Made by a program: the position numbers. DNA of 64,000 bases from a plasmid: NCBI RefSeq assembly GCF_053078305.1, contig NZ_CP166875.1; one strand, written 5' to 3'. Positions 36,001 to 39,000 of the stretch are shown here, piece after piece. Within the stretch, counting starts at the first letter, position 1; each line of letters starts with the position of its first letter.

Positions 36001-39000
36001 TCAGCAAATAAAAAAGCATATATTAAGATAGCATAAAAAAAAGTGAAAAAAATATTTATTTTCAGTAGTTGCCATGGAGATTTATCATTTTTTAATCTAA
36101 GATTTTTACATGTGTTTAAAAATAAAAGAATGGCAGTGAAAGGAGCTGTTTTTACATACAGACTCAATGTTTTGCTAAATACTGGGGTGTTTTGTGAGTA
36201 TATGGCAGGTAGGTCATTTGCTCTCAATGCTATATAGTTTAATATATTGGATGTTGGATTGTGGATATATATAATGATTATTGAGAACATTGGGATTAGT
36301 GAAATTATAAGGAAGTAAAACATCTTTGTTGCTATTTTATTTCCTTTGTCTGTTTGGTGGTGTTTATTTATCATCTGTTTACCTGTAAATTTATTATATT
36401 AAAGATTTTGATGAATGGCTATGGTTTATTTTCTCTTTAGAGAGTAATATATGAAACTTGGCAATCCTACTGGGATTGCCATTAATAAATAGAACAATGC
36501 AGATAACTTGCATAAGTACCAGGGCTCTTTTTTTAACTTTGTATTTTCTTTGATATATCTAGATATGGTTAATTTAGAGTATGGATATAGCAATACATAT
36601 ATTGACGATATAAAGATAAATAACAAAGGAGTGTTATCAGTGTCGTTAAATATTAAAATAAGAATCCATGGTATAAGTGATTCAGGTAAATTATGTAGGT
36701 AGTATTTTAAATGCATAAGTATTTTTACTTTTGTCGGAAAGGGATATGAAAATAATAATTTTTCTAATTAAAATATTATTCTTGTCAGGATGTCAAGCAA
36801 ACTATATTCGTGATGTACAATGAGGAACCGTTGCGTCATCTTCGTCTTCTGAACTGACGGGGATCGCGGTTCAGTAGAAAAGATCAAAGGATCTCTTGAG
36901 ATGGGGTCCCAAGCCGGAAACCTGGATTTTTCCGCTGGATTTTTCCGCGACCAGTAACGGCGTGGGGTGTCACATAAATGACCGATTGAGTGACTGTCAC
37001 TGAAACAACGATTTCTACATCAGATTTCGTCACATAACCCGTCACCTATTGGGGTCAGTTTGGATATAGAGAATTAGGGGGCTGGCGCTCAGTGGAACGA
37101 AAACTCACGTTAAGCAATGTTTTCTTCCTCCGATGCCTCTTTTTGCCCTTTAGTCACCAGTTCTGCCAGCGTGAAGGAATATGGCCGAGCATATTGATGT
37201 GTCCGTGGCAAAGTGGTGAGAGGCGTGCGATATCTTCATCATTCACGATTTCCCCCTGTGCCCTGAAATGGTCCAGGGCAGCCTGCATATAAATAGTGTT
37301 CCATAATACGACGGCGTTAGTCACCAGCCCCAGTGCGCCCAGTTGATCTTCTTGACCATCGGTATATCGCTTTCTTATCTCACCTTTCTGACCGTGACAG
37401 ATAGCTCTGGCAACGGCATGGCGACTTTCTCCCCGGTTAAGTTGGGTCAGGATGCGCCAGCGGTAACGGTGATTTCATATTGAAGATAACTGTTGTACAA
37501 TTTAATTGTACAACTCAAAGAGGAAGCACTATGTTTACATGTAACTATAGCCATGCTCGCGATAACCTGGCCTCGTTGCTCGAGCTGGCGGTTGATGAAA
37601 ATCAGCCTGTTGAGATTCAGCGCCGTAAAGGTGGCGCGGCTGTACTGGTTGATAAAGACGCTTTTGAACGATACCGTAAAGCGGCTCTTGATGCTGAGTT
37701 TGCTGAGATCATGCAAAGTCATGGGACGGCCTATACGGAGCTTTCTAAGCGATGAAATTCGTTAGTTCACAGGAAATGATTGAGTTTCATGACCGCTTGA
37801 TTTCGCGTGATGGTGGCGTGGCGGGTATGCCAGAACCCGGTCGCGCTGACGCGATCATTCATCGTGTTTTGAACATGTATCATTATGAAGGTGTGACAGA
37901 TATTATGGATCTGGCTGCCGTGTATTTAGTTGCTATTGCTCGTGGTCACATTTTCAACGATGCAAATAAGCGAACAGCCTTGTTTGTTGCACAGGTTTTT
38001 TTAAAACGGAATGGTATACATATTATTAGTTCGCGTATTTCGTTTGATGAAATGCAAATTATCGCTTTGAATGCTGCAACAGGAGAATATAACTGGAAGA
38101 TGGTTTCTGACCATCTTAAAGCCATTATTTTAAATTAGATATAGATATCCAATCAGCAGCATTTTACAATCTACTGAGCAATGTAAAAATCATATATCTT
38201 TTTGCTATATAATTTCTGGCGTATGTGCTCAATTCAGACCTGACACTTTTCCGCTTCCTCGCCCACTCGCTCACTACGTTCGGTCGCTGGGGCTGCGGCG
38301 AGCGTTTGTAAGTTTTCTCCAATACTGACGACGTGCTTCCTAGGACAATGAGTCTCTCAGAATCGGTTTCTCGAAGTGACGAGCGATCAGAATGGAGACA
38401 AATAAATTCGGGAAACGAACCTTCACGGTAAGTTTTGTCACATTTATCATCCCTAAACATGAGAATTATCACCAAAACTAACCACCCAACAAACAGCAGC
38501 GCCGGGAGCAGCATTATAAAATCATGTACAGTGTTGCGTAACGACATGATAAGTTCTCAATATGCTCTTTACCAGATTATACCAGTGATACTTTAACGCA
38601 CCATCATTAATGCTAATGTATGCATACATTAGCATTAACATGCTGACAGCAACAAGCGGCGGATTTACGTCTGGATAACGTAAATGATTGCGGTATACAG
38701 GCCAGGCGGTCAGATTTTCAGCCGTGCCTGTTCCTGCAGCAGTTCCAGATGATATGTAGCAATAGCGTTTACCACCCCTGCCGTCATCCGTGCGTCGGCG
38801 ATCGCTGAGTGTGCCTGCCCTTCCCAGGTCAGTCCGGCCTGGCTGGCAGCACAGGCCAGTGAAATCGTGCCATAGCGGTTGGTGGCCCCATAATATCCTG
38901 CAGCCAGCTCCATCGCACAATATACCGTCAGTTCTTCCAGCCAGTCAGCCGGATCGCTATGTGCGGCAGCAGTCTGTTTCAGAATGCGGATATCGAACCG

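Follow-up and report, generated by a model that had tools for sequence, protein, structure and literature searches.

It has been reported that colicin systems located on large plasmids (group B) lack lysis genes and that, in the case of ColIb, the toxin is released by prophage lysis (PMC7374059, PMC9517006). An ancestral loss of the lysis gene has been explicitly proposed for such systems, although without examples (Spriewald et al. 2020, PMC7374059). Colicin S4, encoded in the operon csa-csi-csl and Tol-dependent, still showed low-level leakage when it was expressed without a lysis gene (PMC2649078). On small ColK plasmids (pVR50C, NZ_CP011137; NZ_CP062882), the lysis gene ckl encodes a full prolipoprotein of 43 amino acids and lies between the opposite-strand immunity gene cki and the start of a ColE1-type replication region. 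Here we describe a colicin operon that ends in the same gene as ckl, in the same neighbourhood, but is located on plasmids of 108-152 kb, with a different colicin upstream and with a stop codon inside the lysis gene. No paper describing this colicin locus was found in literature searches.

A mosaic colicin operon on large IncF plasmids

The window, that is, the whole stretch of 64,000 nucleotides of contig NZ_CP166875.1 that was analysed, carries the ehx operon of STEC plasmids and represents an E. coli virulence plasmid. The plasmids with the colicin module are conjugative and of the IncF type. As shown in Table 1, the operon is a mosaic composed of an S4-like colicin, a Cui-type immunity gene, an orphan colicin K immunity gene and a ColK-type lysis gene, the latter being the final gene of the SOS-regulated operon and lying on the same strand as the colicin gene. 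The promoter contains two overlapping LexA boxes, CTGTACATAAAACCAG and GTGGTTATATGTACAG, and the layout CTG-N10-CAG is that of the classic colicin double SOS box. The promoter is intact, as are the reading frames of colicin, cui and cki.

Table 1. Features of the colicin locus, with positions in the window.
Feature	Position	Strand	Basis or remark
SOS-regulated colicin promoter	34215-34277	+	read directly from the sequence
Colicin promoter, -35 element TTGACA	34215-34220	+	
Two overlapping LexA boxes	34247-34277	+	upstream of the colicin gene
Pore-forming colicin, 498 aa	34322-35818	+	Pfam PF22512, PF01024
Cui-type colicin immunity gene, 177 aa	35841-36374	-	Colicin_im PF03857, 110 bits
cki, orphan immunity gene for colicin K, 96 aa	36426-36716	-	CKI PF17500, 182 bits
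Purine-rich Shine-Dalgarno-like stretch	36736-36744	+	just 5' of the lysis-gene ATG
Inactivated ColK-type colicin lysis (release) gene	36746-36877	+	translation, allele alignment, Pfam
Signal peptide of the lysis gene, codons 1-15		+	
Codon 9, AAA (Lys)	36770-36772	+	ACA (Thr) in every intact ColK-type allele
Lipobox LSGC, codons 13-16	Cys16, 36791-36793	+	
Premature stop TGA	36821-36823	+	in place of GGA (Gly26, mature position 11)
Codon 31, TCA (Ser)	36836-36838	+	CCA (Pro) where the gene is intact; residue 16 of the mature part
Remnant of small ColK plasmid sequence, about 25 bp	36878-36902	+	3' of the lysis gene; alignments
Tn3-family transposase fragment (pseudogene)	37110-37465	-	flanks the captured colicin module

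The colicin matches the Csa_translocation_dom family with 102 bits as well as the Colicin family, and it shares with colicin S4 the duplicated receptor-binding domain. It is S4-like from residue 1 to about residue 440. As far as position 35643, its nucleotide sequence is 96% identical to csa from a plasmid of the pColS4 type, and beyond that it diverges, in the C-terminal hydrophobic hairpin. Compared with the S4 operon, hairpin and immunity gene are of the Cui type, cki is present in addition, and the lysis gene is of the ColK type instead of csl (MKKIIICAISLGIMLLAACQVNNVRD...). The 177-aa gene, named 'colicin immunity protein Cui' in RefSeq, is cognate to the swapped hairpin, while no colicin K gene accompanies cki, which carries the RefSeq name 'colicin K immunity protein' and shows 95.8% amino acid identity to cki of pVR50C. 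An NCBIfam scan gave no match for any protein of the locus.

Homology to the small ColK plasmids stops at the remnant downstream of the lysis gene, which we take to be the start of a ColE1-type replication region. The transposase fragment farther downstream was placed by transferring the RefSeq annotation of an identical locus (offset 35289), and a matching ORF fragment is present. In some relatives, IS91 elements are found within or adjoining the locus.

With group B systems such as ColIb, this locus shares the large, low-copy conjugative plasmid, the SOS-regulated colicin with its immunity and a lysis gene that is presumably without function. It differs from them in still having a lysis gene, recognisable as a pseudogene, where they have none, and the S4-type translocation domain (PF22512) suggests that uptake is not TonB-dependent.

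The lysis gene and its premature stop

The earlier note had described a colicin lysis gene with an in-frame TGA after codon 25, and both points were confirmed. The gene consists of 25 codons, the TGA, 17 in-frame codons and a final TAG (36875-36877). When searched against Lysis_col (PF02402, cutoff 27 bits), the conceptual read-through product of 43 amino acids scored 79.1 bits and the 25-aa product by itself 32.8 bits. Since both scores are above the cutoff, the sequence is a genuine lysis-gene homologue. The Shine-Dalgarno-like stretch GGAAAGGGA is conserved, with variation, among intact alleles. The lipobox expected of a member of the family is present; the 25-aa product, which keeps it, could still be made, and this is a point against a null allele.

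Alignment with intact ColK-type lysis genes placed the TGA exactly at Gly26. One substitution, G>T at 36821, accounts for it and leaves the frame unchanged, so that the ancestral codon GGA can be recovered. This codon was read in about 25 fetched intact alleles and in about 40 database records, and glycine occupies the position in 114 of 115 family members. From Cys16 onwards, only 10 mature codons precede the stop, which falls inside the motif DVQGGT (DVQ-stop) that is present in 103 of the 117 family members. As the mature lipopeptide has 28 residues in 90/117 members, the 25-aa product is not the normal form in this family, and this possible refutation, named in the earlier note, fails. In NZ_CP045714 and pN51a, RefSeq/PGAP lists the gene as a pseudogene with 'internal stop', and the annotation of NZ_CP075633 gives it as a 25-aa CDS (WP_106904597.1). 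The inactivation is thus already annotated by RefSeq, and the gene is an ordinary, widespread pseudogene.

The nearest ckl allele, which also has GCG at codon 30 and a 1-bp deletion after the gene, is identical to the TGA allele at 129 of 132 nucleotides. The three differences, none of them synonymous, are T9K (36771), G26stop and P31S (36836), and all of them fall on conserved features. Lys9 is placed in the hydrophobic core of the signal peptide and splits it into stretches of 6 and 4 residues, so that the core is no longer uninterrupted. In 107 of 117 family members there is no charged residue among the 12 residues preceding the lipobox cysteine, and the exceptions mostly have aberrant N-termini. 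Proline is found at the position of codon 31 in 108/113 members, and none of the rest has serine. The copy in CP075633 has, in addition, been cut off at codon 36, and an IS91 element lies close behind it. Therefore, of the statement that the gene is otherwise intact and not decaying, the single nonsense codon and the open frame stand, while T9K and P31S, together with the truncation in CP075633, speak against it.

The change at 36771 could also be read in another way, namely that the sequence of the dead gene persists on account of a second role of its 5' part as promoter region of the divergent cki; T9K may then have altered a promoter instead of reflecting decay. Upstream of the cki start at 36716, the minus strand has TTGACA (36796-36791) and, after an 18-nt spacer, TTTAAT (36772-36767). 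Position 36771 lies in this candidate -10 hexamer, for which intact alleles have TGTAAT. However, a promoter scan did not report this candidate, since neither version has the required A at the second position of the -10 hexamer, and the TTGACA overlaps the conserved Cys-Gln codons and is therefore possibly coincidental. Such a promoter would account for the retention of the sequence but not for the stop codon, and we regard this explanation as quite improbable.

A premature stop with respect to close orthologues and further damaging changes both point to a pseudogene under relaxed constraint, with statistics that are marginal (p about 0.07-0.2). In the mature part, intact lineages differ by 7 synonymous changes to 1 replacement (L005 versus L004), and the TGA lineage shows 0 to 2; the contrast gives p about 0.07 when calculated by hand, and over the entire gene p is 0.21. 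Nor are substitutions significantly more frequent in the lysis gene (3/132) than in the ColK-derived backbone, which has about 17/1490 upstream and 4/291 in cki. Selection for the loss of the lysis gene is therefore unproven.

We also considered whether the gene might retain an attenuated function, either by low UGA read-through with insertion of tryptophan or by partial activity of the 10-residue lipopeptide and/or the signal peptide. UGA is the leakiest stop codon in E. coli, no further stop interrupts the 17 codons after the UGA in any full-length copy, and the lipobox is intact. According to the title of one paper, moreover, cloacin release is aided by a stable BRP signal peptide on its own. 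If this were the case, some or slow colicin export would occur with little lethal lysis of the producer, and such low-dose lysis could allow a group A colicin to persist on a large virulence plasmid. We consider it very unlikely, however. Both routes depend on the signal peptide that is damaged by T9K, P31S strikes a conserved residue downstream of the stop, and the downstream ORF is cut away in CP075633, so that purifying selection downstream of the UGA is not supported. A search of Rfam gave no match at E <= 1, SECIS included, and the RNA structure following it is unremarkable (z = -1.4; 15 of 200 shuffles fold equally well). Moreover, GGA alleles share the identical sequence downstream of the codon, and the UGA is confined to one near-clonal haplotype. 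The shortened Cal and BRP lysis lipoproteins resemble the 25-aa product in their C-terminal truncation with the lipobox kept, but functional truncations, in the work of Howard, Cavard and Lazdunski in 1989 and of Luirink and colleagues, reportedly kept roughly 16-20 mature residues, about as many as seem to be needed, against 10 here, where the signal peptide is altered too. Programmed recoding, be it selenocysteine insertion or read-through, was rejected, there being no SECIS or stimulatory structure and no conservation of the UGA across homologues. Read-through or recoding thus finds no support, and there is no sign that the stop is a special regulatory device.

Distribution of the TGA allele

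With an exact match to a 61-nt allele-specific query, the identical TGA allele was found in 8 independent complete plasmids of 108-152 kb from several countries and laboratories. It was also present in a gut-metagenome contig and in 10/10 of the draft-genome contexts fetched for the neighbouring colicin, and the 25-aa product occurs on at least 1000 public contigs. Given these many independent assemblies, the suspicion of a sequencing or assembly error at the TGA, raised in the earlier note as a possible refutation, can practically be dismissed.

Each of the 17 TGA copies that were fetched, and L013 as well, belongs to the colicin-cui-cki locus of large plasmids, and intact lysis alleles are located on small ColK plasmids of 7-24 kb. 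The sole two copies on large plasmids with an intact lysis gene are recombinant patches, one of which equals the small ColK plasmid of the same strain at every variable site. The TGA was seen in one near-identical haplotype and not across diverged homologues, and this allele is found in linkage with two distinct colicin recombinants, both of full length. A degenerate 81-nt pattern, applied to metagenomes and fetched loci, retrieved only three haplotypes and no intermediates (Lys9 with GGA, Thr9 with TGA, etc.). A 25-aa protein with Thr9 (P0017) was noticed on 3 contigs, some of them labelled 'partial'; it may represent an intermediate or else an artefact of contig ends. The plasmid module has spread worldwide, and the TGA allele is fixed in it. 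The suggestion of a recent inactivation is hence true only in a relative sense.

These data also bear on the question of whether the operon as a whole is in neutral decay. The colicin system might have been functionless since its capture, with the lysis gene merely the first part to be damaged, and colicin and immunity genes would then look intact because too little time has elapsed. Three of the 8 complete plasmids with the TGA allele carry a frameshifted colicin (CP061837, CP129254) or cui (CP061837, CP075633), and the IS91 elements in or adjoining the locus, as well as the number of lysis-gene substitutions, not significantly above the backbone, would be in line with such a decay. However, the frameshifts could reflect decay of the whole module or errors in long-read assemblies, and most of the fetched copies have undamaged colicin, cui and cki genes; the SOS promoter in the window is intact as well. 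The exact 498-aa colicin protein has entries in 5,341 index blocks, and the linkage of the allele to two colicin recombinants likewise argues against a system that is simply eroding. We therefore judge neutral decay of the whole system unlikely.

Probable consequences for colicin release

In our opinion, the lysis gene is likely to be a null allele of the ColK type, placed last in a mosaic, SOS-controlled operon that was captured onto large conjugative IncF plasmids. According to this model, the operon passed from a small ColK-like plasmid to the large plasmids. The G>T change turned the conserved Gly26 codon into TGA and shortened the mature lipoprotein from 28 to 10 residues, and Lys9 breaks up the hydrophobic core of the signal peptide. 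With the lipoprotein truncated and the signal peptide altered in this way, and with promoter, colicin frame and immunity genes intact, colicin would be expected to be still made upon SOS induction, without quasi-lysis driven by the lysis protein and without death of the producer caused by it. The module would then act like the lysis-gene-free colicin systems of large plasmids, and the toxin would be retained in the cell until leakage or until lysis by another agent, most plausibly the SOS-inducible prophages carried by STEC hosts. Loss of the lysis function is what the sequence suggests, continued use of the colicin and this route of release are what we would suppose, and the loss may have been either selected or merely tolerated. 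The proposal of the earlier note that colicin production is kept without lethal lysis would fit these observations, since colicin, immunity genes and SOS promoter are intact and the exact colicin is very common.

By itself, the finding is a minor one: a nonsense codon has inactivated an accessory gene, and RefSeq has already labelled it a pseudogene. What makes it worth noting is its setting, in which a Tol-type (group A) colicin operon went from a small multicopy plasmid to a large conjugative virulence plasmid and lost its suicide-release gene there, with toxin and immunity kept; this natural example is very common. This transfer followed by loss is the scenario put forward for large-plasmid colicins without lysis genes (Spriewald et al. 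2020, PMC7374059). In addition, the natural 'revertants' that arise by gene conversion from co-resident small ColK plasmids provide near-isogenic pairs, which would be useful to weigh costs and benefits of colicin-driven lysis versus prophage lysis in STEC.

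The premature stop codon and its distribution

Translation of the ColK-type colicin lysis gene confirmed exactly the coordinates, frame and peptide of the earlier note, and placed a premature TGA ahead of the natural TAG. Its conceptual full-length product scored 79.1 bits against the Pfam family Lysis_col (PF02402; cutoff 27) and the 25-aa product by itself 32.8 bits. When the gene was aligned with those of the ColK plasmid pVR50C and of two large plasmids in which this locus has an uninterrupted lysis gene, the premature stop was found to replace GGA (Gly26) through a single, indel-free G>T change, as expected from the original description of one nonsense codon in a maintained frame. 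Among 136 collected lysis-family sequences, the usual mature length was 28 residues (90/117), mature position 11, where the stop lies, was Gly in 114 of the 115 sequences with a recognisable lipobox, and the DVQGGT motif that contains this site was found in 103. Therefore, the 25-aa form is abnormal for the family and not its normal form, an objection the earlier note had foreseen.

Positions of the features of the colicin locus and of compared loci (window coordinates unless a locus is named)
Feature	Position	Strand	Remarks
Colicin promoter	34215-34277	+	-35 TTGACA, classic double LexA box
Colicin, 498 aa	34322-35818	+	Chimera; S4-type body, other C-terminal hydrophobic hairpin
Cui-type immunity gene (cui)	35841-36374	-	
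Colicin K immunity gene (cki)	36426-36716	-	Orphan
Lysis gene	36746-36877	+	
Putative cki promoter	36767-36796	-	TTGACA 36796-36791, 18-nt spacer, TTTAAT 36772-36767
C36771A	36771	+	T9K
G36821T	36821	+	G26stop
Premature stop TGA	36821-36823	+	
C36836T	36836	+	P31S
Natural stop TAG	36875-36877	+	
End of small-ColK-plasmid homology	36902		
STEC17-183 patch, window equivalent	36429-36893		
STEC17-183 patch, large plasmid	L003 3809-4298		NZ_CP075653
STEC17-183 counterpart, ColK plasmid	L012 3124-3614		NZ_CP075656
Cut lysis gene	L013 5957-6088		NZ_CP075633
Frameshifted colicin and/or cui	L001 1723-3775		CP061837
Frameshifted colicin and/or cui	L006 1722-3216		CP129254
Frameshifted colicin and/or cui	L013 5053-5501		NZ_CP075633

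Exact matches to a 61-nt allele-specific query were obtained in eight complete plasmids of 108-152 kb (CP027641, CP027674, NZ_CP075633, CP061837, NZ_CP045714, NZ_CP129254, NZ_CP129349 and pN51a), which originate from the USA, Switzerland, Norway and three Chinese provinces and come from human stool, cerebrospinal fluid and sheep; CP027674 and the window share 100% identity across 3.4 kb. The TGA allele was present in all 10 contexts fetched via the neighbouring colicin and its 25-aa product on at least 1000 contigs, so that a sequencing error, the other doubt raised earlier, does not explain the stop. The allele was also seen on one gut-metagenome contig, and the neighbouring colicin protein (WP_001040753.1) is very common, with 5,341 index blocks listing its exact sequence. 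Two RefSeq records mark the gene as a pseudogene, noting an 'internal stop', and a third lists it as a 25-aa 'colicin release lysis protein' (WP_106904597.1). The TGA lysis gene is a real, ordinary and already annotated feature.

The colicin operon and its plasmid setting

The lysis gene is the last gene of a mosaic colicin operon. The colicin body shows about 96% nucleotide identity to colicin S4 (csa) up to approximately residue 440, including the duplicated receptor domain, whereas the C-terminal hydrophobic hairpin differs from that of S4 and the lysis gene is of the ColK type instead of the csl of S4. Upstream, the resemblance to ColK/S4 plasmids extends to exc2, a pair of small ORFs and the promoter region, and small-ColK-plasmid homology stops about 25 bp 3' of the lysis gene, beyond which lie a Tn3 transposase fragment and a phd/doc pair; therefore, this stretch represents a small Col-plasmid module captured on IncF plasmids. 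In the parts 1-25000 and 39001-64000, one side carries the ehxCABD enterohemolysin operon, a YadA-like adhesin, a Tle1-like phospholipase gene and RepB, and the other a type IVB pilus/shufflon region, relB/parE-type and phd/doc toxin-antitoxin pairs and several IS elements. From ehxCABD, the adhesin and the pilus region, the window is a piece of an STEC virulence plasmid. The pattern CTGT-N10-CAG had 22 matches in the whole window versus 6.5 expected from shuffles, a surplus unconnected with LexA and probably due to the frequent use of CTG and CAG as codons and to the double counting of palindromes.

Haplotypes, further lesions and gene conversion

Genotyping of 42 fetched lysis-gene copies at codons 9, 26, 30 and 31 yielded only three haplotypes: Thr, Gly, GCA and Pro in small ColK plasmids and one large-plasmid patch (haplotype 1); Thr, Gly, GCG and Pro in small ColK plasmids (haplotype 2, which shares a 1-bp deletion 3' of the gene); and Lys, stop, GCG and Ser in the window allele (haplotype 3). 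The latter derives from haplotype 2 through exactly three substitutions, with no synonymous one among them. T9K introduces a charge midway along the hydrophobic core of the signal peptide; in 107 of 117 family members, none of the 12 residues preceding the lipobox Cys is charged, and the N-termini of most others are clearly aberrant. Pro31 is conserved in 108/113 members, and none of the others has Ser there. In CP075633, moreover, the dead gene is cut at codon 36 (diverging after 35), directly upstream of an annotated IS91 element. To call the gene otherwise intact was therefore too strong. An IS91-associated junction was also seen at another site in locus L019, just past an ori remnant, and a different junction in L017, 4 nt after the lysis-gene TAG. 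A 25-aa homologue (P0017, 3 contigs) has Thr9 and the same final residue as the window's product, with some entries labelled 'partial'; it could be an intermediate combining Thr9 with the TGA, or a gene truncated where its contig stops.

In the mature part, the pVR50C and Col10-like alleles, both intact, differ near-wholly by synonymous changes (7, versus 1 replacement), compared with 0 synonymous and 2 replacement changes in the window lineage, a contrast that is suggestive and not significant (hypergeometric p ~0.07, calculated by hand). Nor was the excess of lineage-specific substitutions in the lysis gene significant (3/132, against ~17/1490 for the ColK-derived backbone upstream and 4/291 for cki). 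Recoding or read-through of the UGA found no support: there were zero Rfam matches, the adjacent RNA structure is unremarkable (z = -1.4), GGA alleles share identical downstream sequence, and the UGA is limited to one haplotype, with damaging changes on both sides. Persistence of the sequence might reflect the putative cki promoter that overlaps the 5' part of the gene upstream of cki; the T9K nucleotide falls within its -10 hexamer, TGTAAT in intact alleles, and this change might have the same reason, although the match to consensus is weak.

Among the copies compared, all TGA copies lie in the large-plasmid colicin locus, and intact alleles in small ColK plasmids of 7-24 kb, with two large-plasmid exceptions. 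In strain STEC17-183, the cki-lysis segment of the large plasmid does not differ from the co-resident 7.7-kb ColK plasmid at any variable position, whether substitution or indel, and the large plasmid is window-type outside it; judged from this comparison, the segment is a gene-conversion patch giving back an intact lysis gene. NZ_CP075668, a 36-kb plasmid of STEC2018-553, has a Col10-like patch delimited at the same two points. Since the TGA allele is paired with two different colicin recombinants (the CP129349 colicin differs at 23 residues, mostly S4-ward), the inactivation that had been proposed as recent is not brand new.

Proposed consequences for colicin release

A null lysis gene is the best-supported reading, because the signal peptide is damaged and ten mature residues are reportedly too few for function, according to truncation studies of the lysis proteins Cal and BRP. 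Upon SOS induction, colicin would then be made without active release, and the producer cell would be spared death from its own lysis protein. A release route could come from the SOS-inducible prophages that are carried by STEC hosts. The null reading matches the organisation of large-plasmid colicins, which are without lysis genes and of which ColIb at least is released via prophage lysis; ancestral lysis-gene loss has already been proposed as their origin (PMC7374059; PMC9517006). When colicin S4 was expressed free of its lysis gene, leakage still sufficed to kill sensitive cells (PMC2649078).

Colicin and/or cui are frameshifted in three TGA-allele plasmids, which hints at wider decay of the module or may reflect indel errors in long-read assemblies. 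Other lysis homologues were seemingly inactivated independently (P0122, P0125, P0111, P0128 and locus L047 4001-4138), with lesions such as lipobox Cys>Gly, in small ColE1-type plasmids, and Cys>Tyr; in another, the N-terminus is swapped for Tn3 inverted-repeat read-through (MSFRSTERQ...). Lysis function may often have been lost repeatedly, and the locus is of modest use as a natural case of a group-A-type colicin module that has presumably become lysis-free on a large plasmid.
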